Shown piece after piece: positions 4,910 to 23,843 of a stretch of 45,656 nucleotides of DNA (positions are counted from its first letter, which is position 1; each line of letters opens with the position of its first letter). This stretch comes from Acidobacteriota bacterium (GTDB lineage Bacteria > Acidobacteriota > Thermoanaerobaculia > Multivoradales > JAGPDF01), in the NCBI GenBank assembly GCA_011525905.1, contig WYBK01000176.1:1-45656 (forward strand), written 5' to 3'. Position numbers and translations under genes: made by a program. A model generated the notes under the pieces. It saw nothing but the letters and a program-made list of their open reading frames with translations. It did not search any database and was not told the origin of the DNA.

Positions 4910-4939
4910 TTGGAGCGCGCGTAAGTGCTGAAGTAGGAT
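4910..4939 (+). promoter_or_regulatory. Candidate sigma70-type promoter for the nuoB block (TTGGAG-18 nt-TAGGAT)
   Basis: An AT-richer patch in an otherwise GC-rich spacer. Hexamers at 4910-4915 and 4934-4939; GGAGG at 4946-4950 precedes ATG 4955. Confidence 0.25.
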
Positions 4940-4954
4940 GCCCGCGGAGGCGCG

Positions 4955-7163: not shown

Positions 7164-7164
7164 C

Positions 7165-7830
7165 ATGACCGAGCTCGAAGCCCGCCCCGAAGCCCTCCAG
7201 CTGCCCGGCGTGCAGGACCATCCGAAGGAGGTCCGGCCGCGCCCGATGTCGCTCGGCGAGCGGCTCTACCTGCCGCTGCTCGCCGGCATGACGGTGACGC
7301 TGCGCCACTTCTTCCAGAACATCTTCCGGACGCGCGAGCGGGTGACCATCCAGTATCCGGAGGAGCGGCGCGACTACTCGCACCGCTACCGGGGCCACCA
7401 CATACTGACCACGCGTCCGGACGGCTCGGTGCGCTGCGTCGCCTGCTTCCTCTGCGCCACCGCCTGCCCGGCCGACTGCATCCACATCGAGGCGGGCGAG
7501 CACCACGACGTCAACGTCGAGAAGTACCCGGTGGTCTACGAGATCGACATGCTGCGCTGCGTCTTCTGCGGCTATTGCGTGGACGCCTGCCCGGAGGAGG
7601 CGATCATCATGTCGAACAACTACGACATGGCCTTCTACAGCCGGTCGCAGTCGATCGTCGGCAAGGAGGACCTGATGAAGCCCTTCACCTTCGATCCTGG
7701 CAAGCTCGGCTATCGGCCGCGCTTCCCGGAGGAGGAGGAGAAGCGCGCCGCGATGCGCCGCGAGGCGTTCGACCTGGTCGCCGCAGCCAAGGCGAAGGGG
7801 GAGCCGCAGAGCCGGGTCGCCGCCGGCTGA
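7165..7830 (+). CDS. nuoI: NADH-quinone oxidoreductase subunit I (2x[4Fe-4S]) with N- and C-terminal extensions
   Basis: Two ferredoxin motifs, CVACFLCATACP and CVFCGYCVDACP. The ATG lies 1 nt after the nuoCD stop. 221 aa. Confidence 0.9.
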   Translation: MTELEARPEALQLPGVQDHPKEVRPRPMSLGERLYLPLLAGMTVTLRHFFQNIFRTRERVTIQYPEERRDYSHRYRGHHILTTRPDGSVRCVACFLCATACPADCIHIEAGEHHDVNVEKYPVVYEIDMLRCVFCGYCVDACPEEAIIMSNNYDMAFYSRSQSIVGKEDLMKPFTFDPGKLGYRPRFPEEEEKRAAMRREAFDLVAAAKAKGEPQSRVAAG

Positions 7831-7884
7831 GCCCTCGGGCGCCGCCGGATTCGCCGGAGCCCGAACCGCCTCGAGACGACCGCG

Positions 7885-8850
7885 ATGCGACGCTGGCACG
7901 ACGAGAGCCAACAGGACGCGACGCCGGCCCCCAGCCGCCGGGAGCTGCTGGCGATGCTGGCGGCCGCGCCGCTCGCGGCAGGAGCCTGGCCGATGCACGC
8001 CGCCACCCCGGCGCCGCTGCTCGCGCGCCGCATTCCCTCGACCGGCGAGGAGCTGCCGGCGCTCGGGCTGGGCACCTGGCGCGCCTTCGACGTCGGGGCC
8101 TCGGCGGCGGAGCGCGAGCCGCTCGCGGAGGTTCTGCGCGAGCTCGTCGACGCCGGCGCGCGGCTGATCGACAGCTCGCCGATGTACGGCAACGCCGAGT
8201 CGGTGGTCGGCGACCTGGCGCGCGCGCTCGCCGTGCGCGACCGGCTCTTCCTGGCGACCAAGGTCTGGACCCGGGGGCGCGCCGAGGGGATCGAGCAGAT
8301 GGAGACCTCGATGCGCCGCCTCGGCGCCGAGCGGCTCGACCTGATGCAGGTGCACAACCTGGTCGACGCCGACACGCATCTCCAGACGCTCGCCGGCTGG
8401 AAGCGCGAGGGGCGGGTCCGTTACGTCGGCGTCACCCACTACGTCGCCTCGGCGCACGCGGACCTCGCGGCGGCGATCCACCGCGGCGGTCTCGATTTCG
8501 TCCAGGTCAACTACTCGATCGTCGAGCGCGAGGCCGAGGAGCGCCTGCTGCCGCTGGCGCGCGAGGCCGGGGTCGCGGTGATCGCCAACCGGCCGTTCGC
8601 CGGCGGCGACGCTTTCGCCCGCCTGGCCGGTCGGGCGCTGCCGGACTGGCTGGGCGAGCGCGGCGTCGCGAGCTGGGCGCAGGCGATGCTCAAGTTCACG
8701 ATCAGCCATCCGGCGGTCATCTGCGCCATCCCGGCGACCTCGAAGGTCCGCCATCTGCGCGACAACCTCGGAGCGGCGCGCGGCTGGCTGCCCGACGCCG
8801 ACGAGCGCGCCCGCCTCGCCGCAGACCTGGAGCGCGCCCTCGGCGCCTGA
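7885..8850 (+). CDS. Aldo/keto reductase with twin-arginine (Tat) signal peptide
   Basis: 321 aa. SRRELLAMLAAAPLAAGAWPMHA Tat-like leader. AKR core motifs (LGLGTW, IDSSPMYG, LDLMQVHN, VGVTHY). Confidence 0.8.
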   Translation: MRRWHDESQQDATPAPSRRELLAMLAAAPLAAGAWPMHAATPAPLLARRIPSTGEELPALGLGTWRAFDVGASAAEREPLAEVLRELVDAGARLIDSSPMYGNAESVVGDLARALAVRDRLFLATKVWTRGRAEGIEQMETSMRRLGAERLDLMQVHNLVDADTHLQTLAGWKREGRVRYVGVTHYVASAHADLAAAIHRGGLDFVQVNYSIVEREAEERLLPLAREAGVAVIANRPFAGGDAFARLAGRALPDWLGERGVASWAQAMLKFTISHPAVICAIPATSKVRHLRDNLGAARGWLPDADERARLAADLERALGA

Positions 8851-8862
8851 GCTCGGCCGGGC

Positions 8863-10230
8863 TCAACCGTCCGGCAGCCGGACCTCGAAGCAGACCCCCT
8901 CGGAGCCGCCGTCGAGCAGCTCGACGGAGCCGCCGTGCGCCTCGGCGGCCCAGCGCACGACCGAGAGGCCGAGGCCGCCGATGCCGGTGCCGGCACCACC
9001 CCGGTAGTAGCGGTCGAACAGGCGCGGCCGCTGCTCGGGCGGGATCGCGGGGCCGGAGTTGGCGACCCGGATCCGCGCCTCGGCGCTCGTCCGCTCGACC
9101 TCGACGCGGACCGGCCCATCCGGCGTGCCGTGCTTGATCGCGTTGTCGAGCAGGTTGAACAGGACGAGCCGGACCAGCTGCTCGTCGGCGCAGACGACCG
9201 CGCGCTCGTCGACCCGCGAGACGATCGTGAGCCCACGTTCGCGGCTGGCCGGAGCGAGCCGTTCGATGGCCTCGTCGACGAGGCGTGCGAGGTGGACTTC
9301 CGAGCGGCTCAGGCGGGGCTCGGCGCCCGGCTCGGCGCGCGCCAAGGCGAGCAGCCCCTCGAGCACGGCCTGGAGGTGGACGATCTCCTGCAGGTTCTCG
9401 GCGAGCAGGCGCCGGTACTCCTCGGGGGCCCGCTCCCGCCGCAGGGTCACCTCGATGCCGGTGCGCAGCACCGAGAGCGGGTTGCGGATCTCGTGCGAGG
9501 CGTCCGCGGTGAAGCGGCGCATCGCCTCCAGGCTCCCCGCCAGGCGCTCGAGCAGGTCGTCGAAGGCGTCGGCGAGGATCGCGACCTCCTCGACGGCCGG
9601 GTGGCGCGGACCCAGCCGGCGATGGGGCTGCTCCGGGTCGATCGCGCGGATCGCGGCGACCAGGCCGGCGATCGGCGCCAGCGCCCGGCGGGCGAGCAGG
9701 CGGCCGCCGAGCGCGGCGCCCGGAATCACGACGAGCCCGACCAGGCCGAGGATGAGACCGAGCCGCCGCTCGGCGGCGATCACCCGGTCGAGCGAGCCGA
9801 TCGCTTCGGCGACCAGCCCGCTGCCGAGCCGGCGCCCCCGGCCGCCGACCGCGTGGGCGACCAGCAGGTAGCGGCCGCCCGCCTCGCTCATCTCGATGGT
9901 GACGACCTCCTCCGTCAGGTCCTCGCTCGAGACCGGCAGCGCCGGGGCCCCCGGGGTTGCGGCGAGCAGCTCGCCGCCGCCGCGCACCCGCAACCAGATG
10001 CGCATCGGCTCCTCCTCGGGAGCCTGCAGCTCGGGCGCGTCGAGCCGGCCGCTGGCGGCGACGTAGGCGGCCAGCGCCTCGGCCTCGTTCTTGAGCGTCA
10101 GGGCGGCGAGGTCGCGGCGCGCGCGGGCCGAAGTCAGCCAGACCGCGCCGGCGACGGTGCCGTAGAGCAGGAGCAGCGTGAGCGCGAAGCGCCGCGCGAT
10201 GCCGCGCTCGAGCGAAGCGCCGGAGCTCAC
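8863..10230 (-). CDS. Sensor histidine kinase (two TM segments, HAMP, HisKA, HATPase_c)
   Basis: H-box FTADASHEIRNPL, N-box LLDNAIKH, G-box GIGGLGLSVV. GTG 10230 overlaps the response-regulator stop (GTGA). The track ORF extends further upstream in frame through the regulator gene. Confidence 0.85.
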   Translation of the reverse strand: MSSGASLERGIARRFALTLLLLYGTVAGAVWLTSARARRDLAALTLKNEAEALAAYVAASGRLDAPELQAPEEEPMRIWLRVRGGGELLAATPGAPALPVSSEDLTEEVVTIEMSEAGGRYLLVAHAVGGRGRRLGSGLVAEAIGSLDRVIAAERRLGLILGLVGLVVIPGAALGGRLLARRALAPIAGLVAAIRAIDPEQPHRRLGPRHPAVEEVAILADAFDDLLERLAGSLEAMRRFTADASHEIRNPLSVLRTGIEVTLRRERAPEEYRRLLAENLQEIVHLQAVLEGLLALARAEPGAEPRLSRSEVHLARLVDEAIERLAPASRERGLTIVSRVDERAVVCADEQLVRLVLFNLLDNAIKHGTPDGPVRVEVERTSAEARIRVANSGPAIPPEQRPRLFDRYYRGGAGTGIGGLGLSVVRWAAEAHGGSVELLDGGSEGVCFEVRLPDG

Positions 10231-10907
10231 CGTGGCGGCTCGATCGACAGCCGCCAGCCGACGCCGGGAACCGTGTGCAGGAGCCTGGGGGCGCCATCCG
10301 CCTCGAGCTTGCGGCGCAGCCGGCCGACGATGACGTCGACGACGTTGCTGCGCGCCTCGTAGTCCGCGTCCCAGACGTGCTCGGCGAGCGTGGCGCGCGC
10401 GAGCGCCACACCGGGGTGGAGCAGGAAGTACTCGAGCAGGGCGAGCTCTTTGGGCGTCAGGTCGAGCGGCCGGCTGCCGCGGCTCGCCGTCCGGGCGGTG
10501 CGATCGAAACGGAGGTCTCCGACCTCGACGACCTCGACCGGCGGTGTCGCCCGGCGCCGCAGCAGGGAGCGGACCCGCGCCAGCAGCTCCTCGAAGGCGA
10601 ACGGCTTGGTCAGGTAGTCGTCGGCCCCGGCGTCGAGGCCGGCTACCTTCTCCTCGGTCCGGTCTTGCGCGGTGAGCACCAGCACCGGCGCGGTGAATCC
10701 TTCCGTCCGCCATTCCCGCAGCAGGTCGGTGCCCGAGCCGTCGGGGAGCCGGAGATCGAGCAGCACCAGGTCGTAGTCGGCCTCGAGCGACCGGTCGCGC
10801 GCGGCCGCCAGGCCATGGGCGACGTCGGCGGCGAACCCCTCCTCGCGCAGGCCGGCGGCGAGCCGTTCCGCGAGCCGCCGCTCGTCCTCGACGACCAGGA
10901 GGCGCAC
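10227..10907 (-). CDS. OmpR-family response regulator (REC + winged helix)
   Basis: 226 aa. LVLLDLRLPDGSG, YLTKPF, C-terminal TPKELALLEYF ... VPGVGWRL. GTG start. Confidence 0.9.
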   Translation of the reverse strand: MRLLVVEDERRLAERLAAGLREEGFAADVAHGLAAARDRSLEADYDLVLLDLRLPDGSGTDLLREWRTEGFTAPVLVLTAQDRTEEKVAGLDAGADDYLTKPFAFEELLARVRSLLRRRATPPVEVVEVGDLRFDRTARTASRGSRPLDLTPKELALLEYFLLHPGVALARATLAEHVWDADYEARSNVVDVIVGRLRRKLEADGAPRLLHTVPGVGWRLSIEPPR

Positions 10908-11002: not shown

Positions 11003-11599
11003 ATGAGAAAGTTCGCCTTGCTCGCCCTGATCCTGTCCTGGGGCACACTCGCGCCGGCCGCCGCCGAGGAGCGCGTCCTGGTGCTCGACCCCGCCGCCAC
11101 CGAGGTCGCCTTCGATCTGCCGGCGACCGGTCACGACGTCCACGGGCTGTTCACGCTGCGCGAGGGAGAGATCCGCTTCGATCCGGCGACCGGCGCGGCG
11201 AGCGGCGAGATCCGGGTCGACCTCGGTGCCGGCGTCACCGGCAACGCGAGCCGCGACCGGACGATGCGCGAGGAGGTGCTCGAGACGGAGCGCTTCCCGG
11301 TCGCCCGCTTCGTCGCGCGCCGGCTCGAGGGCGAGCTGCACCCGCAAGGGGCGTCGAGAATCGCGCTCGAGGGGATCCTCGACCTGCACGGCGCCGAGCA
11401 CGAGATCACGCTGCCCGCCGAAGTGGCGATCGACGGTCCCCGCCTGGTCGCCGACCTCTCCTTCCCGGTCCCCTTCGTCGAGTGGGGACTCGCGGACCCG
11501 AGCATCCTCTTCCTGCGCGTGGCCAAGATCGTCTCGGTCCAGATCCACGCCGCGGGTGAGCTGCGCGCCCCCCTCGCCGTTGGCGCCGGCGGCGACTGA
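11003..11599 (+). CDS. yceI: YceI-like periplasmic polyisoprenoid-binding protein
   Basis: ATG 11003 follows AGGAGG (10993-10998). Signal peptide MRKFALLALILSWGTLAPAAA. YceI-like beta-barrel pattern (GHDVHGLF, VTGNASRDRTMREEVLETERFP, LDLHG). Confidence 0.75.
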   Translation: MRKFALLALILSWGTLAPAAAEERVLVLDPAATEVAFDLPATGHDVHGLFTLREGEIRFDPATGAASGEIRVDLGAGVTGNASRDRTMREEVLETERFPVARFVARRLEGELHPQGASRIALEGILDLHGAEHEITLPAEVAIDGPRLVADLSFPVPFVEWGLADPSILFLRVAKIVSVQIHAAGELRAPLAVGAGGD

Positions 11600-11606
11600 G
11601 GCGCCC

Positions 11607-12581
11607 TTGCTCGCCTTGGTCGACCGGAGCCGGCCCGCTGCGCCCCGGCCACGTGCGCCGCTCGTCCTGCTCCCAGCCGCCGAGCTCGACCGCCTGCGCC
11701 TGGAGGTTCAACGGCTGCTCGCGCTACCGCGCGGAACGGAGAGCCACCTGGCCGGCGCGGTGCGCGACACGCTCGCCTCGCCGGGTTCGCTCTGGCGCGC
11801 GCAGCTGGCCTGGGCGACCGGGCGCGTCCACGGCCTCGCCCCGCGCGTCGCGCTCGATCTGGCGCTGGGGATCGAGGCGTTCCACACCGCTTCCCTGCTG
11901 TTCGACGACCTGCCGGCGATGGACGACGCCGTCACGCGCCGGGGCCGCCCCTGCGTCCACCGAGTGCACGGCGAGGCGGCGGCGCTGCTCGCCGCGCTCG
12001 GCTTCGTTCATCGCGGCTACGCGCTGGTCTGGCGAGCCTTGGCCGGTGCCCGGCCGCGGCCGCGGCGGGCGGCCGCGGCCTTGCTCGAAGAGTGCCTCGG
12101 GCTGACCGGCATTCTCGACGGCCAGGCCTGGGATCTCCACCTCGAGGGCGCCGGGCTCGCGGGAGAGCGCTGCGCGCGCGTGGTGGCGGGCAAGACCGTG
12201 CCGCTGCTGCGGCTGGCGCTGGAGCTGCCGGCGGTGGTCGCCGGCGCCCCGGCCGCCCGTCGCCGGCTGCTCGCCGAGCTGGCGCGCCGCTGGGGCCTCG
12301 CCTACCAGACCCTCGACGACGTCGAAGATCGAGTGGCGGCGCCGGATGCCGCCGCCGCGGGCGACGCCGAGCTCGGACGGCCGAACCTCGCCGGTTCGCT
12401 CGGGGCGACGGGAGCCCTCGCCCAGGTCGACGAGGAGCTGGCCGCCGTCCGGCCGCTGCTCGCGGCGCTCGAGAGCGCTCTCGGACCGGACGCCGCGCCC
12501 TATCTGCGGCTCGATGGCCACTTGCGCAGCGCGCGCTGGGCGGCGGCCGCGCGCTGCGGGGCGCCGGCACCGGCAGGATGA
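11607..12581 (+). CDS. Polyprenyl diphosphate synthase family protein (trans-isoprenyl type)
   Basis: FARM SLLFDDLPAMDDAVTRRGRP (DD..DD at 11904-11927), GQAWD, GKTVPLL, SARM YQTLDDVED (12315-12329). No ATG or GTG after the yceI stop; the only candidate starts are TTG 11607 or 11616. Confidence 0.75.
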   Translation: MLALVDRSRPAAPRPRAPLVLLPAAELDRLRLEVQRLLALPRGTESHLAGAVRDTLASPGSLWRAQLAWATGRVHGLAPRVALDLALGIEAFHTASLLFDDLPAMDDAVTRRGRPCVHRVHGEAAALLAALGFVHRGYALVWRALAGARPRPRRAAAALLEECLGLTGILDGQAWDLHLEGAGLAGERCARVVAGKTVPLLRLALELPAVVAGAPAARRRLLAELARRWGLAYQTLDDVEDRVAAPDAAAAGDAELGRPNLAGSLGATGALAQVDEELAAVRPLLAALESALGPDAAPYLRLDGHLRSARWAAAARCGAPAPAG

Positions 12582-13891
12582 GCGCCGCGCCCGCGGCAGC
12601 CGAGTCGACGCTCGCCCGGGAGGCGGCCACCGGAGCGCCGACTCGCGCCGAGAACCTGGCGGAGGCCGTCGCCGCGCACGCCCTCTTCTGGCTCCTCGTC
12701 GGGTCGGGCGTCGGGCTCTGGTTGGCGACGCTGCAGCTCGCCCCCGAGTGGGGCGCCACCCTCGGTGCCGCCACGTACGGGCGCTGGGCCGCGCTCCACC
12801 TCGACCTCACGCTCTACGGCTGGCTGGCGCTGCCGCTCGTCGGCCTGCTCCTCGATGCCTTCGGCGCCGATCGTCACGTGGCGGCGGGGCGGCTGGCGCT
12901 CGCCCTCTGGTCGGGCGCGCTCGCCGCGGGCGCGGCGAGCTGGCTCGGCGGCCGCACCTCCGGCAAGCTCTTCCTCGACTGGACCGGTCCGGCCGCGGTG
13001 CTCTTCGCCGGCGCGCAACTCGGGGTCGCGGCCCTGCTCGCGCGCGGGCTCGCCGGCTCGGTGCGCCGACAGGGCTGGAGCCGCAGCCACGTCGCCCGAG
13101 CGCTCCTGCTCGCCCTCCTGCTCGCGGTGCCGGCCCTCCTGGTCGCCGCCAGCGACGGCCGGGTCTACCCGCCGATCGACCCGGTGAGCGGCGGCCCGAC
13201 CGGCACGAGCCTGCTCGGCAGCTCGCTCGGCCTGGTCGCGCTGCTGCTCGCCGTGCCCCGGCTGCTCCGGCTGACCGAGGTGGCGGCGGGCCGCGGGCGC
13301 TGGCTCGCCCCCGGAGTCTGGCTGCTGCACGCGGCGCTCTTCGTCGGGCTCGATCATGTCGACCGGCCGAACGGGGATCCGCGCGAGCTGCTGGCCCTCG
13401 GCAGCGTGGTGATCTGGGCCTGGCTGCTGCCGCGCGAGGCCGCGCGCTTCCTCTGGCCGCCGGGCAGCCGCAAATGGCTGCGTGCCCTGGCGGCCTGGGG
13501 CCTCCTGCTGCTCGCGAGCGGCCTGCTTTCGTTCGCTCCCGGCGTGCTCGACCGGGTCAAGTTCGGCGAGGGGCTGGTCGCCCACGCGCACGTCGCGATG
13601 GCGGGGTTCGCCTCCGCCTTCGTGATGCTGGTGCTCCATCGTCTGCTCGATCGGGGCGATCGGCGGGCGACCCTCACCGCTCCGGAGCCCTTCGCGCTCT
13701 GGCAGGGAGGGCTCGCCCTGCAGATCGCGGCGCTCGCCGCGCTGGGCGCGCTCGAGGCGATCGACCCGGCCGCACGGCTGCGCGGCGGGGGCACCCTCGA
13801 TGCGCTGCTGGCGCTGCGCTGGGTCGGGGGGGCGGCGATGCTCGCGGCAACGATCGGCTGGCTGCGCCAGCTCGTCCGGCGGCCGGCATGA
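12578..13891 (+). CDS. Polytopic membrane protein resembling haem-copper oxidase subunit I (CcoN/NorB-like) but without a complete CuB His set
   Basis: 437 aa. ATGA overlap with the upstream gene. YGRWAALHLDLTLYGW (H74 codon 12797-12799) and LVAHAHVAMAGF (H336/H338 at 13583-13591) resemble the HCO TM2 and TM10 haem-ligand motifs. There is no His between residues 171 and 251. Confidence 0.55.
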   Translation: MSAAPAAAESTLAREAATGAPTRAENLAEAVAAHALFWLLVGSGVGLWLATLQLAPEWGATLGAATYGRWAALHLDLTLYGWLALPLVGLLLDAFGADRHVAAGRLALALWSGALAAGAASWLGGRTSGKLFLDWTGPAAVLFAGAQLGVAALLARGLAGSVRRQGWSRSHVARALLLALLLAVPALLVAASDGRVYPPIDPVSGGPTGTSLLGSSLGLVALLLAVPRLLRLTEVAAGRGRWLAPGVWLLHAALFVGLDHVDRPNGDPRELLALGSVVIWAWLLPREAARFLWPPGSRKWLRALAAWGLLLLASGLLSFAPGVLDRVKFGEGLVAHAHVAMAGFASAFVMLVLHRLLDRGDRRATLTAPEPFALWQGGLALQIAALAALGALEAIDPAARLRGGGTLDALLALRWVGGAAMLAATIGWLRQLVRRPA

Positions 13892-14328
13892 GCCGGGCCG
13901 CCACGCGAGCCCTCGGTCGAGGTCGCGAGCGCGTGTTGCCCGCGTTCTGCGCGGTCGCGGGCGGCGGCGACCTGCTGACCGGGCTCCTCTTGCTCGCCCG
14001 TCCGGCCGTGGCGCTCGCGCCGCTCGGCCTGACGGTACCGGCCGAGTCCTGGGTCTTCCTGCGCTGGATCGGCCTCTTCGTCGCCGCGGTCGGGACGATC
14101 TACCTGCAACCCTGGAGGCTCCCCCCGGGCTCCGAGCGGCGGTCGCGGCTGCGCGCAGCCCTCGAGATCACCGCGCTCGTCCGGCTGGCGGTCGCCGCTT
14201 TCGTCGCCGGCGCGGTCCTCGCTGCGGAGCTTGCCGCCCCCTGGCTCGCCGTCGGCGGTTACGACGCGCTGGTGGCGCTCGGGCAGCTCTTCCTATTGCC
14301 TGCGGCGAAGGCTCCCGATGTCCACTGA
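13888..14328 (+). CDS. Small hydrophobic membrane protein (about 4 TM), function unknown
   Basis: 146 aa. ATGA overlap with the upstream gene; an 11-nt overlap with the downstream gene. Confidence 0.55.
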   Translation: MSRAATRALGRGRERVLPAFCAVAGGGDLLTGLLLLARPAVALAPLGLTVPAESWVFLRWIGLFVAAVGTIYLQPWRLPPGSERRSRLRAALEITALVRLAVAAFVAGAVLAAELAAPWLAVGGYDALVALGQLFLLPAAKAPDVH

Positions 14329-16222
14329 CCGACGCCGCCTGGTGAGTGTCGCCGCGGCGGTCGCGGCGGTTTACTTCGCTTTCCTGCTCTGCGCCCAGTT
14401 CGGCTTCCTGGCGCAGCTGGAACGCGCGCTGGGCGCCGAGCCGCGCGCGTTGCAGGGAGCGCTCGCCGCGATGGCGGTGGCCGGAGTGGCCGCGGGCGTC
14501 GCGGCGGCGCGCACGCTCGTCCGGCGCTCGGGCCGCGGCGCCGTGCGCGCCGGCCTGCTGGCGGTGGCGGTGGCCTGCGCCGCGTCGATCGGCGCTCGCC
14601 AGGCGCCGACTCTCGTGCTCGCCGCGGCCGGCTTGGGCGCGGCGCTCGGCTGGGCGACGGTGGCGCTCGCCGGCTCGCTCCTCCGGCTCGCCCCGGCGGG
14701 CGCGGCCGGGCGCGCGGCGGGATTCGGCACCGGCGCCGCCTACCTGCTGGCGAACCTGCCGCCGCTCTTCGCGGGCGATCCGGCGCTGCGCGCCGCCGTC
14801 CCGGCGGCGGCCTGCGTGCTGGCTGCGGGGTTGCTGCCCAGCGACCGCAGGCCTCCGCCGGAGCGGCTGCCGCAGGCTGGCGAGCGCTCGCACATCGCGG
14901 CAGCGGGCGATTTTCCGGCGCTGGTCATGGCCTTCCTGCTGCTCGTCGCCCTCGATTCGGCGGCCTTCGCCGCCATTCAGCACGACTCGGTTCTCCTCGC
15001 GGTCAGCTGGGGGGGGGACGCTCACGCGATGCGACAGGGTCTCGTCCACCTGCTCGCGGCTTGCGCCGCCGGCGTCGCGCTCGACCGCGGCGGGCTGCGG
15101 GCCCTGCTGCTGGCCGCCGGCGCGAGCTTCGCCATCGCGCTGCCCGCGCTCGGCGCTGGGGCGGCCGCCGCGGCGCTCGCCGCCCCTCTCTACGCGGTCG
15201 GCATCTCGGCCTACAGCGCGGCGCTGGTCGCGGCGCCCTCCCTGGCGGGGGGTGCGGTGCCCAGGACGGCGGCCAGCCGCGCCGCCTGGCTCTTCGGAGT
15301 CGCCGGCTGGCTCGGCTCGGGGCTGGGGGTCGGGGCGGCGAAGCACCTCGGATGGCCGGTGATCGCCGGCGCCGCGCTCGCGGTCCTCGGCGCCGTCGCG
15401 GCGCTGTTGGCGCCGAGCGTCCGCGGCCGGGCGCGCGAGACGGCGCTCGCCCTCGCGGTGGGAGCCTGCGGCGGCTTCGTCGCGCTGCGCTCGCCGGCGC
15501 CGGCCGACGACCCGGTCGCGCGCGGCCGGCAGGTCTATCTCGCCGAAGGCTGCCAGCACTGCCACTCGCAGTACGTGCGTCCGGTGGCGCAGGACGCCCT
15601 CTGGTGGGGGCCGCGCCGCGAGCTCGACCGGCGGGAGCATCCGCCCACCCCCGGGAATCGCCGGATCGGCCCGGATCTGGCCAACGTCGGAGTGCGTCGC
15701 GCCGCGCTCTGGCAGGAGCGGCACTTGCGGGACCCGCGAGCGCTGTCGCCGGCCTCGAGCATGCCTTCCTACGCCCACCTGTTCGCCACCGGCGAGCGAC
15801 GGGGGTCCGATCTGGTCGCCTACCTGGGCTCGCTCGGTGCGGGGGCCGAGGCGGCACGGCTGGCCACGATCCGGCGGGCGCCGATGGCGGCGGCGCCGCA
15901 GGTACCCTCGGCGTCGCGCGGCGCCCGACTCTTCGCGCGCCACTGCGCCCCCTGCCACGGCGAAGGGGGCCGCGGCGATGGCGGCGCCCTGGGCGACCTC
16001 GCCCTGCCGGGGCTCGACCTGCGCGAGGGAGCGCTCCGCCGAGCTCGCGACTACGGCGTCGACGAGCCGCTCGAGCGGGCGGTGGCGCGGGTGATCCGCT
16101 TCGGCCTGCCCCCCTGGCTGATGCCGGGGCACGAATGGCTCTCCGCGCAGGAGGTCGGCGATCTCGCCGCCTTCGTGATCGAGCTCTCGGCGAGCGGCGA
16201 CGTCCGGGTGGCCGCTCGATGA
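14318..16222 (+). CDS. Fusion protein: MFS-like polytopic domain + CcoO (cbb3 subunit II/NorC-like) monohaem domain + second cytochrome c domain
   Basis: 634 aa. Residues 1-395 are a hydrophobic 6+6-like domain with a central loop. GRQVYLAEGCQHCHSQYVRP ... GPDLANVG ... SSMPSY matches CcoO (CQHCH at 15551-15565). The second haem motif CAPCH is at 15944-15958, with an MPG Met ligand. Confidence 0.8.
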   Translation: MSTDRRRLVSVAAAVAAVYFAFLLCAQFGFLAQLERALGAEPRALQGALAAMAVAGVAAGVAAARTLVRRSGRGAVRAGLLAVAVACAASIGARQAPTLVLAAAGLGAALGWATVALAGSLLRLAPAGAAGRAAGFGTGAAYLLANLPPLFAGDPALRAAVPAAACVLAAGLLPSDRRPPPERLPQAGERSHIAAAGDFPALVMAFLLLVALDSAAFAAIQHDSVLLAVSWGGDAHAMRQGLVHLLAACAAGVALDRGGLRALLLAAGASFAIALPALGAGAAAAALAAPLYAVGISAYSAALVAAPSLAGGAVPRTAASRAAWLFGVAGWLGSGLGVGAAKHLGWPVIAGAALAVLGAVAALLAPSVRGRARETALALAVGACGGFVALRSPAPADDPVARGRQVYLAEGCQHCHSQYVRPVAQDALWWGPRRELDRREHPPTPGNRRIGPDLANVGVRRAALWQERHLRDPRALSPASSMPSYAHLFATGERRGSDLVAYLGSLGAGAEAARLATIRRAPMAAAPQVPSASRGARLFARHCAPCHGEGGRGDGGALGDLALPGLDLREGALRRARDYGVDEPLERAVARVIRFGLPPWLMPGHEWLSAQEVGDLAAFVIELSASGDVRVAAR

Positions 16223-17154
16223 GGGGACGCCGCTTCGCGACGGCCGGGCTGCTGCTCTCCGCCTCCGCGCTCGCTCTGCACTCCGGGTGGGGGAGGGGGG
16301 AGCGCCCCTGGCGGGAGGCGACCGGCTTCGACCGGGTGCCCCCGCCGCTGCGGCCGCCGGACGATCTGCCCTGGCCAGCGGCGGTCGGGCCGCCGCCCCG
16401 ACTGGCCTGGCTCGGCCATGCCGGCTTCCTGCTGGAGTGGCGAGGCGCCCGGCTGCTGGTCGACCCGAACCTCTCCCCGCGGTGCTCGCTGGTGCGGCGC
16501 CGAATGGAACGCGCGATCGGACCGGCGCAGCTCGGAGCGCTCGACGCCGTCCTGCTGACTCACGCCCACTACGACCATCTCGATCGGCCGACGCTCGCCG
16601 CCCTCGAGCGAGTCGGTCGCTTGCTGCTGCCGGCGGGCAGCGAGGGCTACGTCGCCGGGTTGCGCTCCGACGCGGCCGTCGAGGGGGTCGCGGCCTGGGC
16701 CTCGGTGACGGTCGCCGGCCTGGAAATCGTCGGGGTGCCGGCCTTCCACCACGGCCACCGGCACCATCCGCTGGCGAGCTCCAAACAGGCCCTCGGCTGG
16801 GTGGTTCGCGGCGGCGGGGCCTCGATCTACTTCGCCGGCGACACCGGCGCGGCGAACGACTTCGCCGCCATCGGCGAGCGCTTCCATCCGGCGATCGCCG
16901 TGCTGCCGATCGGCGCCTACGCGCCGCCCTGGCCGATCGGGCGGGTCCATCTCTCGCCGGTGCAGGCGGTCGAGGCGGCGATCCGACTCGGCCGCCCGCT
17001 CGTGGTGCCGGCCCACTTCGGCACCTTCGCGCTGGCGCTCGACCGGCCGGCGGCGGCGCTGCCCCGCTTCGCCCTCGCCGCCGCCGGTGGCGGCGTCGAG
17101 TGGCGGATGCCCCGGTTGGCGCGCGCTGCCGCCGCGAACGAGGGAACGTCGTGA
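16219..17154 (+). CDS. MBL-fold metallo-hydrolase (Lactamase_B_2 / NAPE-PLD-like), membrane-anchored or secreted
   Basis: 311 aa. ATGA overlap. N-terminal hydrophobic segment. LTHAHYDHLD metal motif, FAGDTG, PAHFGTF. Confidence 0.75.
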   Translation: MRGRRFATAGLLLSASALALHSGWGRGERPWREATGFDRVPPPLRPPDDLPWPAAVGPPPRLAWLGHAGFLLEWRGARLLVDPNLSPRCSLVRRRMERAIGPAQLGALDAVLLTHAHYDHLDRPTLAALERVGRLLLPAGSEGYVAGLRSDAAVEGVAAWASVTVAGLEIVGVPAFHHGHRHHPLASSKQALGWVVRGGGASIYFAGDTGAANDFAAIGERFHPAIAVLPIGAYAPPWPIGRVHLSPVQAVEAAIRLGRPLVVPAHFGTFALALDRPAAALPRFALAAAGGGVEWRMPRLARAAAANEGTS

Positions 17155-19241
17155 GCAGCCGGCTGGCGGCCTTCTGGGAGCGCCGGCTGGGCGGGCTGGT
17201 CGAGCTCGCGCTGCGCAGGCCGCGAACCGTCCTCGCGATCGCCGGGGTGGTGGCGGCTCTCTCCGGGGCGCTCGTCGTCACCCGCCTCGAGCTGCGCAGC
17301 TCCAACCTCGACCTGATCGATCCGCGGCTGCCCGAGATCGCCCGCTTCCGCGACTTCGCGGCCCGCTTCGGCACGCCCAACGTCCTGATCGTCGCGCTGG
17401 AAGGGGAGGAGCGCGTCCGCCTCGCGCGGCTCGCCGACCGCCTGGCCTCGGCGCTCCCGCGAGTGACCGGCGTGCGCTCGGTGCTCGCCCGCTTGCCCTT
17501 TCGCGACGAGACGCTCGCGGCGTTCGGCGTGGCCCCGCATTTCTTCTCCGACGACGGCCGGAGGCTCTATCTCTTCGTGCAACCGGCGGACGCCGACTCC
17601 GCGGCGGCCACCATCGCGCCCTTCGTCGCCGGCGTGCGAGCGGCCGTCGCGGCGCTCGCGCCGGAGCGCGAAGGCATTCGGGTCGGCTTCACCGGGCTAC
17701 CGCAGTACGCGCTCGACGACCGCGACTTCGTGCGGCGCGACCTCTCGCGCCTTTCGGCGCTGTCGTTCGCCCTGGTGGCGGCGCTCTTCGTCGCCGGCTT
17801 TCGCGGCGTGCGGCAGCCGCTCCTCGCGATGGCCACGCTGGCGCTGGCGGCGCTCGCGACCGCCGGTGTCGCGGCGCTCGCGCCCGGCCATCTGACCCTG
17901 GTCTCGGCCTTCTTCTTCTCGATCCTCTTCGGGCTGGGGATCGATTTCGCGGTCCACCTGCTGGACGCGGTGGCGGAGCGGCGCGCGCTCGGCGAGCGGC
18001 TCGAGCCAGCGATCGCCGGTTCGGCGCGCTTCTTGGCCCCCGGCCTGGGCACGGGGGCGGCGACCACGGCGCTCTCCTTCTTCGTTCTCCTGGTCTCCGG
18101 CTTCCGAGGATTCGCCGAGCTCGGCTGGCTCGCCGGAGTCGGCGTCCTGCTCGCGCTGCTCGCCACGCTGACCGTTCTGCCCGCGGCCCTCTGTCTGCTG
18201 CCGCCGTCCTCGGCTCGACCACGCGCGGCGCACGAGCGCCGGACCGGTCGCTGGCTGCTGGCCGCCCAGCGGCCGGGCATCGCCCTGGCGCTGTTCGGGA
18301 TCGCGGCCGGCTCGCTCCTGGTCGGACCGCCGCCGTTCGACGGCAACTACCTGAACCTGGAGCCGGCGGGCTCCGAGGCGGTTCGCCTGGAGCGCGAGAT
18401 GGTGCGCGGCTCGACCTTTGCGCCGCAGTTCGCGGCGTTCGTGGTGGCCGATGCGGCGGCGGCGCGACGGCTCGCCGCCGAGCTGCGTCGCGAGGAAACG
18501 GTCGCTTCGGTGCGCACGCTCACCGACCTGGCGCCCCTGGTCGGCCTCGGCGCGGCGCTGCCGGAGGCCTTCGAGGGCTTCCGCTCGCTGTTCGTCGATC
18601 CGGAGGGGCGGCACGCCGTCTACGCCTATCCGGCCGGCGACGTCTGGGAGCCGGGATTCCAGCAGAGGTTTCTCGACGCCATGCGGCGTCTCGACCCCGA
18701 GGTCACCGGCATGCCCTTCGTCGGGCGATTCCTGGTCGACCGCTCGCACCGGGCACTGCGCCGCACCGTCTGGCTCGCCGCGGCGCTGCTCGTCGCCGTG
18801 GTGCTCGCCGACTTCGCGCGACCGACGGCGGCGCTGCTGGCGACGTTGCCGACCTTTCTCGGCCTGATGGTCCAGCTGGGGGCGATGCGGCTGCTCGGCG
18901 TGCCGCTCAACCCGCTCGACATCCTGGCTTTTCCGGTAGTCCTGGGCATCGCCGAGGACAGCGGCGTCCACCTCGTGCACCGCTACCTGGCGGAACGGGG
19001 CGACCTGGCGCGCACGCTCGCGGGCGCCGGCCGTACGGTGCTGCTCTGCGGCGTGACGACCCTCGCCGGCTTCGGCGGGCTCGCCGCCGCGACGCACCGC
19101 GGCCTCGCCTCGTTCGCGCTCGCGCTCGCGCTCGGAGTCGCCGCGGCGCTCGTCTTCTCGCTGCTGCTGCTGCCGCAGCTCCTGCGGTTCGCGCTGCCGC
19201 GCGCCGGGTTCGCCGAGGGGCGCGCGGAGGAGCCCGCGTGA
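17151..19241 (+). CDS. MMPL/RND-superfamily transporter (HpnN-like architecture, two 6-TM bundles)
   Basis: 696 aa. GTGA overlap. Two repeats, each a periplasmic loop followed by TM bundles, with GLGIDFAVHLL and GIAEDSGVHLVHRY motifs. Confidence 0.8.
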   Translation: MSSRLAAFWERRLGGLVELALRRPRTVLAIAGVVAALSGALVVTRLELRSSNLDLIDPRLPEIARFRDFAARFGTPNVLIVALEGEERVRLARLADRLASALPRVTGVRSVLARLPFRDETLAAFGVAPHFFSDDGRRLYLFVQPADADSAAATIAPFVAGVRAAVAALAPEREGIRVGFTGLPQYALDDRDFVRRDLSRLSALSFALVAALFVAGFRGVRQPLLAMATLALAALATAGVAALAPGHLTLVSAFFFSILFGLGIDFAVHLLDAVAERRALGERLEPAIAGSARFLAPGLGTGAATTALSFFVLLVSGFRGFAELGWLAGVGVLLALLATLTVLPAALCLLPPSSARPRAAHERRTGRWLLAAQRPGIALALFGIAAGSLLVGPPPFDGNYLNLEPAGSEAVRLEREMVRGSTFAPQFAAFVVADAAAARRLAAELRREETVASVRTLTDLAPLVGLGAALPEAFEGFRSLFVDPEGRHAVYAYPAGDVWEPGFQQRFLDAMRRLDPEVTGMPFVGRFLVDRSHRALRRTVWLAAALLVAVVLADFARPTAALLATLPTFLGLMVQLGAMRLLGVPLNPLDILAFPVVLGIAEDSGVHLVHRYLAERGDLARTLAGAGRTVLLCGVTTLAGFGGLAAATHRGLASFALALALGVAAALVFSLLLLPQLLRFALPRAGFAEGRAEEPA

Positions 19242-20140
19242 GGTCGGCGATTCTGTGCGGGGCGGTCGGCCGTGCCCTCGCCGGTGGGCTGCTGGCGGCG
19301 GCCTGCGCCGGCGCGGCGAGCGCGACGGCGTTCGAGGAGCAGCGCGCGGCGACCTGCTGGGCGGCACGCCACCGGGGCTTCGAAGCGACCGGCCGAGTCG
19401 ACCCGGCGCCGGTCCGGTGCGCGATCGAGGGATTCGGCGCCGCTGCGGCGGCCGCACCGGAGCGACTCGAGCCGAGGTTTCGCGAGATCGAGGCGCTCTG
19501 GTTCGCGGCGCACTTCGTCCGCATGCCCGGCGGCGAGGCGCGGACGCTGCTCGACCGCTGCGTCGAGGTCGCGGAGGGAGCGGTCGCCGAGGTCGCGAGG
19601 CGGGCAGGAGGTGCCGCCCTCGACCCGGGCGCCGACTTCGAGCTCCGGGCCGCAGCGCTGGCGCCGATTCCCGGGGCGGGCGCCGCACACTTCTGGGCCG
19701 CGATCGCCTGGGGCGAGTGGGCGCTCCAGCACGGCGCCCTCGCCGCTCTCGCGCGGGGAGTCCCCACCAGGTTGCGTCGGCACGCCGAGCTCGCGGCGCG
19801 GCTCGCGCCCGGCCTGCGCGACGGCGGCGGCCTCCGGCTCCTCGGGCGCCTGCATGCCTCGCTGCCGCGGATTCCGGGTCTGACCGGTTGGGTCGACCGC
19901 GCGCGCGGCGTCGAGCTCCTGCGCGAGGCGGCCGCCCGCTGGCCCGGCGATCCGAGGAACCGGCTCTTCCTCGCCGAGGCCCTGCTCGAGCGAGACCCGT
20001 CGTCCAGCGGCGAAGCGCTCGCCCTGCTCGAAGACCTGGCGAACGATCGCGCCGATCCGGAGGAGCGGGTCGAGCAGGCCGAGACGCTCCACGCGGCGGC
20101 CGACCTGCTGCGGCGTCTCTCCGTCGAGAGAGCCCGATGA
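19238..20140 (+). CDS. Helical-repeat (TPR/TatT-like) putative lipoprotein, function unknown
   Basis: 300 aa. GTGA overlap. N-terminal LLAAAC lipobox-like signal. Alpha-helical repeat composition. Confidence 0.5.
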   Translation: MRSAILCGAVGRALAGGLLAAACAGAASATAFEEQRAATCWAARHRGFEATGRVDPAPVRCAIEGFGAAAAAAPERLEPRFREIEALWFAAHFVRMPGGEARTLLDRCVEVAEGAVAEVARRAGGAALDPGADFELRAAALAPIPGAGAAHFWAAIAWGEWALQHGALAALARGVPTRLRRHAELAARLAPGLRDGGGLRLLGRLHASLPRIPGLTGWVDRARGVELLREAAARWPGDPRNRLFLAEALLERDPSSSGEALALLEDLANDRADPEERVEQAETLHAAADLLRRLSVERAR

Positions 20141-20832
20141 GCCCGGCCGCGGCCGACCCCTACGCGGCCTATCTGCGCGCCTTCTTCGCTCGGTGGAGCT
20201 CGCTCTACGACCTGTTCGCGGCGCCGATCGGATTCGTCTACCGCGCGGCGGCTCGCCAGGCGGGCGCCGCCCCCGGCCGGCGGCTCCTCGACCTGTGCAC
20301 CGGCACCGGAGAGCTCGCGCTCCGCTGCGCCCGGCTCGGCGCGCAGGTCACCGCGGCCGACTTCACGGCCTCGATGCTCTGGCGCGCGCGGGCCAAGGCG
20401 CGCGGCCGCGGCCTCCGGCTGGTCGAAGCGGATGCCCGGCGGCTGCCGTTCGCGGACGCGAGCTTCGACGTCGTCCTGCTCTCCTTCGCGCTCCACGACA
20501 TGCCGGCCCGGGCGCGGGTGGAGTCGCTGCTCGAGGCGACACGCGTCGCGCGCGAGCGGGTGATCGTCGTCGACTACGACCCGCCGACGAGAGGCCTCGG
20601 AGGCCGGTTGGTGACCGCCATGCTCGCGAGCTTCGAAACCGCCTACTTGCGCGGCTTCCTGCGTGCCGGCGGTACTCCGGCGGCGATCGCCGCCGCTGGC
20701 CTCGGGGTCGAGCGCCGGCGGCGGGCGCTCCCGGGGCTGTTCGGGATCTGGTCGGTCGCGGCCGCCGTTCAGCCGAGCACGCGCCGGATCTCGGCCTCGA
20801 GCACCCCCGGTTCGAGCTCGACGAGCTCGTAG
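20137..20832 (+). CDS. Class I SAM-dependent methyltransferase (UbiE/COQ5-like)
   Basis: 231 aa. ATGA overlap. Motif I LLDLCTGTGELA, then ADFTASML, LPFADASFDVVLLSFALHD. The 3' end overlaps the convergent gene by 64 nt. Confidence 0.75.
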   Translation: MSPAAADPYAAYLRAFFARWSSLYDLFAAPIGFVYRAAARQAGAAPGRRLLDLCTGTGELALRCARLGAQVTAADFTASMLWRARAKARGRGLRLVEADARRLPFADASFDVVLLSFALHDMPARARVESLLEATRVARERVIVVDYDPPTRGLGGRLVTAMLASFETAYLRGFLRAGGTPAAIAAAGLGVERRRRALPGLFGIWSVAAAVQPSTRRISASSTPGSSSTSS

Positions 20833-22085
20833 GTGACGCCGACCACCGGCTTGTCGGAGGCCAGGACGCGGGCCAGGTCGATCGGCGTCCCCTCGACCAC
20901 GACGTCAGCGGGCGTGGCGCGGATGGTCGCCTCGAGGTCGCGCACCTGCTCGTCGCCGTAGCCCATGGCGGGCAGGATGCCGGCCGCGTTCGGGTACTTG
21001 GCGTAGGTCTCGACCAGCGAGCCGACCGCGTACGGGCGCGGGTCGACGATCTCAGCGGCGCCGGCGTCGCGGGCGGCGAACCAACCCGCGCCCACGCTCA
21101 TGCCGCCGTGGGTGAGGGTGGGGCCGTCCTCGACCACCAGCGCCCGGCGGCCGTGGATCGCGGCCGGGTCCGAGGCGCGGATCTCCGAGGCGCAGCGCAC
21201 GATGCGCGCGCGCGGGTTGATCCGGCGGCAGTTCGCCTCGACCTCCGCCACCTTGTCGGCCTCGGCGGTGTTGACCTTGTTGACGATCACGAGGTCGGCC
21301 ATCAGGACGTTGGTCTCGCCCGGGTAGTAGGAGATCTCGTGCCCGGGCCGGTGCGGGTCGACCAGGACGACGTGGAGATCGGAGCGATAGAAGGGAGTGT
21401 CGTTGTTGCCGCCGTCCCAGAGGATGACGTCGGCTTCCTTCTCGGCCTCGCGCAGGATCTTCTCGTAGTCGACGCCGGCGAAGACCACGAAGCCGTTGTC
21501 GATGTGCGGCTCGTACTCCTCGCGTTCCTCGATCGTGCACTCGTGCCGGTCGAGGTCCTCGTAAGTCGCGAAGCGCTGGCAGACCTGGCGCGCGAGGTCG
21601 CCGTAGGGCATCGGGTGGCGGATCGCGACGACCCGTTTGCCCATCGCCTTGAGGATGCGCGAGACGAAGCGGGTCGTCTGCGACTTGCCGACCCCGGTGC
21701 GCACTGCGGTGATGGCGATCACCGGCCGGACCGAGGAGACCATGGTCGCGGTGGCCGAGGCGAGCGTGAAGTGGGCGCCCCAGCCGTTGACGTGGGCAGC
21801 CTTGTCCATGACGTAGCCGTGCGACACGTCGGAATAGGAGAACCAGACCTCGTCGACCCGCTCGTCGCGGACGAGCCGTTCGAGCTGCTCTTCGGCGACG
21901 ATCGGGATGCCGTCGGGGTAGCGCTTCCCCGCCAGCACGGCGGGGTAGCGGCGCCCCTCGATGTCGGGGATCTGCGTCGCGGTGAAGGCGACGACCTCGA
22001 ACTCCGCGCGGTCGCGGAAGAGCACGTTGAAGTTGTGGAAATCGCGCCCGGCGGCGCCCATGATCACGACACGTCTCGGCGACAT
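20769..22085 (-). CDS. COG2403-type P-loop protein (cyclic 2,3-diphosphoglycerate synthetase-like GTPase family)
   Basis: 438 aa. N-terminus VVIMGAAGRDFHNFN, P-loop RTGVGKSQT. GAAGGAGG lies upstream of the ATG. Confidence 0.6.
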   Translation of the reverse strand: MSPRRVVIMGAAGRDFHNFNVLFRDRAEFEVVAFTATQIPDIEGRRYPAVLAGKRYPDGIPIVAEEQLERLVRDERVDEVWFSYSDVSHGYVMDKAAHVNGWGAHFTLASATATMVSSVRPVIAITAVRTGVGKSQTTRFVSRILKAMGKRVVAIRHPMPYGDLARQVCQRFATYEDLDRHECTIEEREEYEPHIDNGFVVFAGVDYEKILREAEKEADVILWDGGNNDTPFYRSDLHVVLVDPHRPGHEISYYPGETNVLMADLVIVNKVNTAEADKVAEVEANCRRINPRARIVRCASEIRASDPAAIHGRRALVVEDGPTLTHGGMSVGAGWFAARDAGAAEIVDPRPYAVGSLVETYAKYPNAAGILPAMGYGDEQVRDLEATIRATPADVVVEGTPIDLARVLASDKPVVGVTYELVELEPGVLEAEIRRVLG

Positions 22086-23686: not shown

Positions 23687-23843
23687 CAAGACCGGTTGCC
23701 ACATCGGAATCGGGAAGCTATCCTGGGAAGGCAGTTTCCTGCCGCGCGGCCCCGTCGGACGGATGGGCCCGCCACGAGATTCCGCGAGAGCCGCCGGGCG
23801 AGAGGCCGGCGCGGCGCCCGGCACGAGACGAAGGAGGTGACCG

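Follow-up and report, generated by a model that had tools for sequence, protein, structure and literature searches.

Canonical CcoO, the haem c subunit of cbb3 oxidases, is a protein of about 200-240 amino acids (aa) with one N-terminal anchor helix. In an Acidobacteriota bacterium (GCA_011525905.1, contig WYBK01000176.1, positions 1-45,656, forward strand; this whole stretch of 45,656 nucleotides (nt) is called the window below), a gene was found that encodes a CcoO core fused at its N-terminal side to a domain of the major facilitator superfamily (MFS) and at its C-terminal side to a second cytochrome c domain. The fusion is widespread, and its annotation is that of an ordinary oxidase subunit. 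Trojan et al. labelled the genes Terro_4248-4250 of Terriglobus roseus DSM 18391, of which Terro_4250 is the fusion, as ccoN, "cco-gene of unknown function" and ccoO, and observed them at 0-12 transcripts per million (TPM) whatever the O2 level (Trojan et al. 2021; PMC8407424). In the same study, ACP_0885-0888 of A. capsulatum were down-regulated at low O2, and the authors called it unclear whether the oxidase had lost its function (PMC8407424). T. roseus was counted among the carriers of high-affinity oxidases via the fusion gene (Eichorst et al. 2018; PMC5900883), and the module is the only "cbb3" that was counted in this organism (PMC5900883, PMC8407424). Literature searches on the fusion, its locus tags and CuB-less CcoN proteins retrieved no description of the MFS fusion or of missing CuB ligands. 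The reading favoured here, to which we assign a probability of about one in two, is that the fusion protein belongs to a copper-less, cbb3-derived redox complex of the cell envelope that acts on an isoprenoid lipid made by its own operon.

The fusion gene (14318..16222, forward strand) starts with the ATG at 14318, in a frame that is open from 14231, and ends with the stop codon at 16220-16222. Unlike canonical CcoO, its product has 634 aa and 13 transmembrane (TM) helices, and its homologues can be aligned with it from residue 1. The CcoO/FixO haem c core occupies aa 401-492 (15518..15793, forward strand). A preliminary description of this DNA, made from the sequence alone, had called the core unmistakable, and rightly so: FixO (PF02433) was matched over aa 402-491 with an E value of 2.4e-24 (86.5 bits vs a Pfam cut-off of 29.6), the same family was matched by all 56 relatives, the solved CcoO chains 6xkw_o and 3mk7_B were found at E values of 4e-16 to 7e-15, and all motifs quoted in that description were present. 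The motifs CxxCH, GPDL and MPSY align residue for residue with solved CcoO chains (6xkw_o). They correspond to the haem site C412-x-x-C415-H416 (nt 15551-15565), to residues 451-454 and to M482-P-S-Y, with Met482 (nt 15761-15763) as the predicted haem ligand. The match spans only positions 52-143 of the 219 positions of the FixO profile and, unlike in cbb3 oxidases, the C-terminal third of this profile is missing. The second monohaem domain, which had been said to resemble half of a CcoP, lies at aa 531-625 (15908..16192, forward strand) and does so: over aa 532-621 it matches Cytochrom_C (PF00034, E value of 7e-14) and Cytochrome_CBB3 (PF13442, 4e-11), and it is matched by the CcoP chain 3mk7_C (3.6e-5). 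Its haem site is C543-x-x-C546-H547 (nt 15944-15958), followed by M602-PGHE with Met602 at nt 16121-16123. A CcoP-like haem c domain, a feature shared with cbb3 oxidases, is added to the CcoO core but, unlike in these enzymes, the CcoP part has been cut down to one haem and fused. In an alignment of 86 family members from several phyla, both CxxCH motifs were present in 86/86 and M482 was invariant; 46 % of the positions of the CcoO core are conserved in 90 % or more of the members.

The region in front of the core had been described as about 395 hydrophobic residues organized, in an MFS-like manner, as two halves around a charged loop. Pfam gave no match in the N-terminal 395 aa of the window protein, MFS_1 included, and MFS_1 (PF07690) was reached by 13 of the 56 relatives (best E value of 2.5e-7). 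An AlphaFold model was made for P0001, a cluster representative with 631 of 634 residues identical to those of the window protein. The model (predicted local distance difference test, pLDDT, of 87.6) has six plus six helices around the loop, a 13th helix and two haem domains. Its top 50 Foldseek matches in the PDB were all MFS proteins, with E values down to 1.8e-6; the best ones included GLUT3, OxlT and NorA, with target-normalised TM-scores of up to 0.74. The MFS domain, TM1-12, can thus be placed at aa 1-364 (14318..15409, forward strand), with an Arg-rich central cytoplasmic loop at aa 173-197 (14834-14908, forward strand), and the preliminary view of this region was upheld. MFS motif A is degenerate in the N-terminal half and partial in the C-terminal half, where it reads "LDRG" (D256 in 33 % and R257 in 71 % of the members). 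The 13th TM helix (aa 371-389; 15428..15484, forward strand) was delimited from the model and from the distribution of positive charges. In the model it is the counterpart of the single anchor helix of CcoO and would take the chain to the periplasm. The window protein has 16 Lys and Arg residues on the cytoplasmic side vs 4 outside; the family means are 14.2 and 3.3, and the excess inside was seen in 86/86 members. It follows from this charge bias that both CxxCH motifs should be periplasmic. In architecture and topology the fusion protein is almost certainly an inner-membrane protein with a cytoplasmic N-terminus and with both c-haem domains in the periplasm.

Far from being rare, the fusion has a broad distribution. 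A protein search returned 96 clusters, most of them with 95-99 % query coverage at 37-59 % identity, and a genome scan with one genome per species yielded at least 80 loci with near full-length matches, spread over Acidobacteriota, Verrucomicrobiota and further phyla. The architecture is identical and collinear throughout these clusters and loci, at 34-59 % identity overall. A frameshift or assembly artefact that would split the frame, a concern of the preliminary description, was therefore rejected, and neither is the N-terminal domain an ordinary extension of canonical CcoO. Hosts within the Acidobacteriota are Thermoanaerobaculia, Holophagae and Acidobacteriaceae, the last with T. roseus DSM 18391, Telmatobacter bradus, Occallatibacter savannae, Granulicella, Edaphobacter and Terracidiphilus. 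Opitutaceae, Luteolibacter, Haloferula, Akkermansia and Methylacidiphilaceae are other hosts, and fusion loci were also found in a Thermodesulfobacteriota genome and in a Bdellovibrionales genome. Two variants were noted. P0228 (1016 aa) is a fusion protein with an added helix and a metallo-β-lactamase (MBL) domain, resembling NAPE-PLD, at its C-terminus. In P0277 (1130 aa), the CcoN-like protein treated below is joined to the fusion protein via a low-complexity linker; it was not used as proof of physical association, as this linker resembles an out-of-frame read-through.

When compared with NCBIfam, the fusion protein stayed far under the cut-off of every cbb3 model. The best match was NF011054, "bifunctional cbb3 subunit II/cytochrome c" (E value of 1.3e-25; 90.5 bits vs a cut-off of 447). 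The proteins of this type, such as those of loci L006 and L007, also consist of a CcoO core followed by one or more extra c-haem domains. Unlike the fusion protein, they have a single anchor helix and no MFS domain, and their partner CcoN carries all six histidines.

The fusion protein is subunit II of a three-gene module that is conserved across phyla and consists of a CcoN-like protein, a small membrane protein and the fusion. The order of the genes, N before O, is that of cbb3 oxidases. The CcoN-like gene (12578..13891, forward strand) encodes the homologue of subunit I, a protein of 437 aa with 12 TM helices. It is followed by the gene for the small membrane protein of 146 aa (13888..14328, forward strand). 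Unlike in cbb3 oxidases, this unrelated protein of about 140 aa stands in the place of CcoQ. A census of the operon genes was made on the 63 loci with sufficient flanking DNA; in 59 of them, the gene for the small protein separates the CcoN-like gene from the fusion. In T. roseus it corresponds to Terro_4249, which carries the annotation "hypothetical".

The 437-aa protein has no match in Pfam or NCBIfam, the ccoN equivalog of the latter included, and a single-sequence search of the PDB returned nothing relevant. Some of its relatives carry a weak COX1 match and the label "cbb3 subunit 1" of the Joint Genome Institute (JGI). A profile of 46 sequences of the family matched CcoN structures in the PDB with an E value of 1.3e-7, and in this match H74 falls on the haem b histidine of "GRLRPLH". 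Foldseek analysis of the AlphaFold model (pLDDT of 89) placed CcoN and NorB at the top, with a TM-score of about 0.67 over about 470 columns. An hhalign comparison of 79 family members with six canonical CcoN references, taken from plasmids, gave a probability of 99.1 and an E value of 7e-18. As in cbb3 oxidases, subunit I thus has the 12-helix fold of the haem-copper oxidoreductases (HCO), closest to CcoN, with the His of helix 2 and the HxH of helix 10 kept.

The fate of the single ligands was read from the hhalign alignment, with S. meliloti numbering for canonical CcoN. The haem b ligand H121 corresponds to H74, which is 100 % conserved, and the haem b3 ligand H409 to H336 (97 %). The other haem b ligand, H411, corresponds to H338, which only 48 % of the family retain. 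H271, the CuB ligand on helix 6, corresponds to G209, a position with Gly in 94 % of the sequences, and the cross-linked Y315 to a position with a non-Tyr consensus (D258 in the window). The two CuB ligands on helix 7, H321 and H322, are represented by His in 88 and 63 % of the family and by N265 and G266 in the window. No conserved His was found between residues 140 and 250 of the CcoN-like family, and no conserved Tyr on its helices 6 or 7. The window protein keeps H74, H336 and H338 and none of the three copper ligands. By these alignments, the CcoN-like family is predicted to retain the haem scaffold but to be incapable of forming the canonical CuB-Tyr centre.

Some further positions of subunit I are of note. 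H34 on helix 1 is 97 % conserved and has no counterpart in canonical CcoN, and at position 251 on helix 7 Thermoanaerobaculia have His and most other lineages Glu. Leu replaces the second histidine of the HxH motif, the low-spin haem ligand, giving "HSL", in Acidobacteriaceae (Terro_4248, at 7194-8549 of locus L054, and loci L020, L033 and L041). M341, which is 81 % conserved and lies near this motif, might substitute as haem ligand. The "HSL" ccoN genes of the Acidobacteriaceae thus depart from a canonical oxidase even more than the copy in the window does.

In the window, the module is part of a set of nine genes (11003-20832) with mutual overlaps of 4-11 nt; the contigs of five relatives and 80 genome loci were taken into the comparison of this operon. 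The first gene (11003..11599, forward strand) encodes a periplasmic lipocalin of the YceI family, of the polyisoprenoid/quinone-binding type (PF04264, E value of 4.7e-20), with a signal-peptide-like N-terminus; it matches the polyisoprenoid-binding protein TT1927b (1wub) and the YceI-like chain 5ixh. The second gene (11580..12581, forward strand; PF00348) specifies a trans-prenyl diphosphate synthase with a CrtE-like (C20-type) chain-length motif, for which the best NCBIfam matches are farnesyl diphosphate (FPP) and geranylgeranyl diphosphate (GGPP) synthases. In 70/70 orthologues, Ala at -5 and Ser at -4 precede the DDxxxxD motif, which we take to be the CrtE/GGPP-synthase pattern under established chain-length rules. 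The gene has no ATG; its sole in-frame starts near the stop codon of yceI are the TTG codons at 11580, 11607 and 11616, and it is probably translationally coupled to yceI. Downstream of the fusion gene lies an optional operon member for a hydrolase of the MBL fold (16219..17154, forward strand; PF12706), of which the nearest solved relative is NAPE-PLD, a lipid phosphodiesterase (PDB 4qn9, E value of 8.5e-24). It is followed by the gene for a lipid exporter of the MmpL/resistance-nodulation-division (RND) type (17151..19241, forward strand; PF03176), which resembles HpnN (TIGR03480, E value of 4e-84) and BstA (6e-77), both under the NCBIfam cut-off. The last two genes encode a tetratricopeptide repeat (TPR)-like protein (19238..20140, forward strand), which is 48 % identical to a protein of locus L002 that weakly matches the sterol-transport protein BstC, and a UbiE/MenG-like S-adenosylmethionine (SAM) methyltransferase (20137..20832, forward strand), again an optional member. 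Divergently transcribed from the operon are the genes of a two-component system (8863..10907, reverse strand), an OmpR-type regulator (10227-10907) and a histidine kinase (8863-10230), with the heavy-metal types CopR/CusR (TIGR01387, E value of 3e-59) and CopS/CusS (TIGR01386, 7e-60) as best families.

This setting is largely constant. The CcoN-like gene was present in 63/63 loci, an exporter in 62/63, the trans-prenyl diphosphate synthase in 61/63, the small membrane protein in 59/63, YceI in 50/63, the OmpR-type regulator in 46/63 and the histidine kinase in 44/63. The exporter is a MacB-type pair of FtsX permease and ATP-binding cassette (ABC) ATPase in 52 of the 63 loci, for instance at 5400-7207 of L054 and 5528-7326 of L083, and an MmpL/RND protein in 10; the two types were never found together. 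That one exporter can be swapped for an unrelated one argues that the extraction of a hydrophobic molecule from the inner membrane belongs to the job of the system. Some loci of Thermoanaerobaculia carry genes for an MqnP-like UbiA aromatic prenyltransferase and a UbiE/MenG-like methyltransferase. A prenylated cofactor resembling haem O, which the combination of prenyl synthase and UbiA might suggest, was considered and dropped: UbiA occurs in only 4/63 loci and is of the wrong type, the UbiA proteins of L002 and L003 being of the MqnP/4-hydroxybenzoate type (TIGR01475 above its cut-off; haem O synthase only at 1e-15).

Conservation within the MFS domain bears on the question of whether this part of the protein still handles a substrate. 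T114, Y142, D213, F217, W231, H244, Y292, Y299, S300, W331 and S334 are invariant in 86/86 members, N146, S214 and Q221 are more than 95 % conserved, and Y19, F22, L23 and F28 on helix 1 are conserved in at least 95 % of the members. By the helix boundaries of the model, the invariant residues are on helices 4, 5, 7, 8, 10 and 11, and the lipid-facing helices 3, 6, 9 and 12 contain no invariant and no conserved polar residue. In MFS proteins, the cavity is bordered by helices 1, 4, 5, 7, 8, 10 and 11. Because the invariant polar and aromatic residues cluster on the cavity-lining helices, the domain is judged, from this pattern, to be under constraint and likely functional rather than decayed. 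The alignment contains no conserved Arg or Lys in the cavity, which makes anionic substrates (diphosphates, nitrate, sugar phosphates) unlikely; transport of nitrate/nitrite, as by NarK, or of sugar phosphates was rejected for this reason. A profile of the MFS domain retrieved 622 proteins, 535 of them at E values of 1e-10 or less, from 1.84 billion representatives. It did not reach generic MFS transporters, and the small number of proteins retrieved indicates that the domain forms a closed family. Most of the matches are fusions of 600-680 aa. Among the top 150, roughly one in four has 355-445 aa and ends just past helix 12, being either a stand-alone version or a truncated gene call.

As an alternative to a role in transport, the MFS domain could be a scaffold or dock that holds the haem domains by the CcoN-like subunit or the exporter. 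Such a role would fit with the failure of the window protein itself to match MFS_1, with the degenerate N-terminal motif A and with the lower conservation of the domain, which has a mean identity to the window protein of 35 % vs 60 % for the CcoO core. We consider it unlikely, as the conserved residues focus on the cavity-lining helices across phyla, and as apparently stand-alone versions of the domain exist (P0223, P0237 and P0257).

The favoured reading, an envelope redox complex working on a lipid made by the operon, is proposed because the module is almost always co-encoded with a prenyl synthase, a lipid exporter and YceI. The preliminary description had tentatively linked the redox chemistry to a substrate that is transported or bound to the membrane; the genes of the operon are consistent with this link, which is still best put as a suggestion. 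The lipid would most likely be of the quinone/quinol type. In the mechanism envisaged, the MFS domain would bind the head group of the lipid or flip it to the periplasmic leaflet, next to the haem complex. Electrons would then pass between the lipid, or lipid radicals or peroxides, and the periplasmic cytochrome c pool by way of haem b, the CcoO haem c and the distal haem c, after which the exporter and YceI would ferry the lipid across the periplasm. The operon would be switched on by the CopR/CusR-type two-component system and not by low oxygen. A role in isoprenoid or quinone-lipid redox chemistry in which the MFS domain acts specifically as the substrate feeder is put forward with considerably less confidence, as a tentative proposal.

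Several points speak against the favoured reading. A diphosphate head group is unlikely to bind in a cavity free of conserved Arg and Lys, and since the operon has an exporter already, there is no obvious need for another domain that moves lipids. Genes for the prenyltransferase and the methyltransferase, which would suggest a quinone, were found in only 4/63 loci, and the scores of the two-component system with CopR/CusR and CopS/CusS fall below the family cut-offs. The redox potential of periplasmic cytochrome c is too high for reducing bulk quinone. Unlike the copy in the window, most members of the CcoN-like family have retained one or both histidines of helix 7 along with the conserved H34, which makes an alternative metal site possible. 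In addition, O2 reduction is possible at a high-spin haem alone, as in bd oxidases.

A second alternative is that the complex descends from the C-family and reduces NO, N2O or H2O2 at a modified haem site, with the MFS domain and the lipid genes only loosely related to this chemistry. The nitric oxide reductases (NOR) cNOR and qNOR are of C-family descent, with a CcoO-like NorC, and NorB took the 7th and 9th places in the Foldseek list of subunit I. Several HCO families with altered sites have been proposed as NO or N2O reductases; Murali et al. described an "N2O red" family, a relative of cNOR that is linked to Flexibacter canadensis. The His/Asn and His/Glu variation near the site would be in line with such a change of function. 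However, the FeB site of NOR (three His and a Glu) is also absent, no denitrification genes were present in the window or in the loci examined, and the near-constant association with prenyl synthase, exporter and YceI would be left without explanation. This possibility is rated as improbable, below the scaffold.

The view of databases and literature is that the module is a genuine high-affinity cbb3 oxygen reductase and the fusion protein a CcoO with an unusual membrane extension. The strong conservation of the CcoO core, with its CxxCH and Met ligand, the HCO fold of subunit I, nearest to CcoN, and the classification of the module as cbb3 in the source annotations and in two papers are in its favour. 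Against these stand the Gly that replaces the helix-6 CuB His across the family, the absence of the cross-linked Tyr, and the helix-7 His pair, which is incomplete in the family and wholly missing in the window. Loss of the active-site Tyr was used by Murali et al. (2024; PMC11214002) as a criterion for HCO families that do not reduce O2. The TIGR00781 ccoO equivalog was not reached by the fusion protein (80.9 bits vs 200.65), nor the ccoN model by subunit I; the genes are not induced at low O2 (PMC8407424); and no ccoP, ccoQ or ccoGHIS genes were found near the fusion gene. The module also differs from cbb3 oxidases in its location in a lipid operon, in the lack of ccoGHIS and in the MFS domain of 12 helices that precedes the core of its subunit II; its CuB site is incomplete and the cross-linked Tyr absent. 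As the helix-6 CuB His and the cross-linked Tyr have been lost family-wide and the helix-7 pair is missing in the window, the complex is probably not a canonical O2-reducing cbb3 oxidase. The cbb3 frame of the preliminary description thus stands for the CcoO core, which is real, and is doubtful for the oxidase, given the partner subunit I without a CuB site. A true oxidase is rated as less probable again than a reductase of another substrate.

A CcoA-like copper importer fused to CcoO, which would couple copper supply to oxidase assembly, was rejected as very improbable: CcoA is an MFS protein needed for cbb3 biogenesis (PMC3266609, PMC6362234), the fusion protein shares with the CcoA/CalT importers the MFS fold, the link with cbb3 and conserved residues on helices 7 and 8, and the neighbouring two-component system best matches Cu/Ag-responsive types, but the CcoA motifs MxxxM of helix 7 and HxxxM of helix 8 (as defined in PMC6362234) were each found in 0/86 members, D213 and H244 (in an HxxxA context) being present instead, and the partner subunit lacks a CuB site that the copper could occupy.

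For the favoured lipid redox complex, the nearest functional analogy is a system of Burkholderia formed by BcnA, a YceI-type lipocalin, and LcoA, a membrane cytochrome b561. It was proposed to act against lipid peroxyl radicals: isoprenoid quinone bound to the lipocalin quenches the radicals, and the membrane cytochrome re-reduces the quinone (PMC9113575). Here too, as in E. coli yceI-yceJ, a YceI lipid or quinone binder is encoded beside a membrane haem protein. The likeness is one of working principle only: the haem partner is not a four-helix b561 but an HCO-derived multi-subunit complex with b and c haems and an MFS domain, and the fusion operon adds a dedicated prenyl synthase and an exporter. 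An aldo/keto reductase gene (window 7831-8850, forward strand) adjoins the gene of the histidine kinase of the operon. The third component of the BcnA-LcoA lipid-peroxidation system, PsrA, is a cytoplasmic aldehyde reductase. The aldo/keto reductase gene is absent at the matching position in L001, and its proximity may be a coincidence.

On the side of lipid export, the operon can be compared with HpnN, for hopanoids, and with BstA/BstB/BstC, for sterols, where genes for an RND/MmpL exporter, for a lipid carrier of the periplasm and for a TPR-like outer partner also occur together. Unlike in these systems, the matches of the operon proteins are under the family cut-offs, YceI stands in the place of the carrier, and most genomes have the MacB-type ABC exporter. 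We know of no redox complex in the HpnN or Bst systems.

A few other genes of the window were noted. Upstream (4937-7830, forward strand), a fused Complex1 30 kDa/49 kDa protein and a 4Fe-4S ferredoxin-like protein are encoded, probably preceded by a small subunit of the Oxidored_q6 type as in L001. This cluster, also found in the L001 contig, resembles a hydrogenase/Nuo-like module minus the rest of complex I. Two well-formed genes for proteins of about 440-450 aa, at 20769-22085 (reverse strand) and 23841-25190 (forward strand), have a G + C content at third codon positions (GC3) of 0.94-0.95 and are Pfam-negative at E values of 1e-5 or less.

In conclusion, a copper-free descendant of cbb3 oxidases, tied via CcoO to an MFS lipid or quinone domain and accompanied by a C20-type prenyl synthase, an interchangeable exporter and YceI, may represent an unrecognised class of isoprenoid-lipid redox systems of the envelope, in which case the "high-affinity cbb3" of many Acidobacteriota and Verrucomicrobiota genomes would not be an oxidase; this wider conclusion is offered tentatively and is more doubtful than the favoured reading itself. 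ccoN and ccoO serve surveys as markers of microaerobic respiration, and the loss of CuB is a warning that surveys of soil Acidobacteriota and Verrucomicrobiota that rely on KEGG Orthology (KO) or Pfam may count too many high-affinity oxidases. The silence of the module at nanomolar O2 in T. roseus, which was reported as a puzzle, would find a simple explanation in a CuB-less subunit I. If true, the HCO scaffold minus its copper and plus a transporter domain would be a new use of the fold. The fixed association of the module with the synthesis of prenyl lipids, with export and with a YceI lipocalin makes the long-unclear role of YceI testable in cultured organisms, among which T. roseus, A. capsulatum, Telmatobacter and Occallatibacter can be named as hosts.

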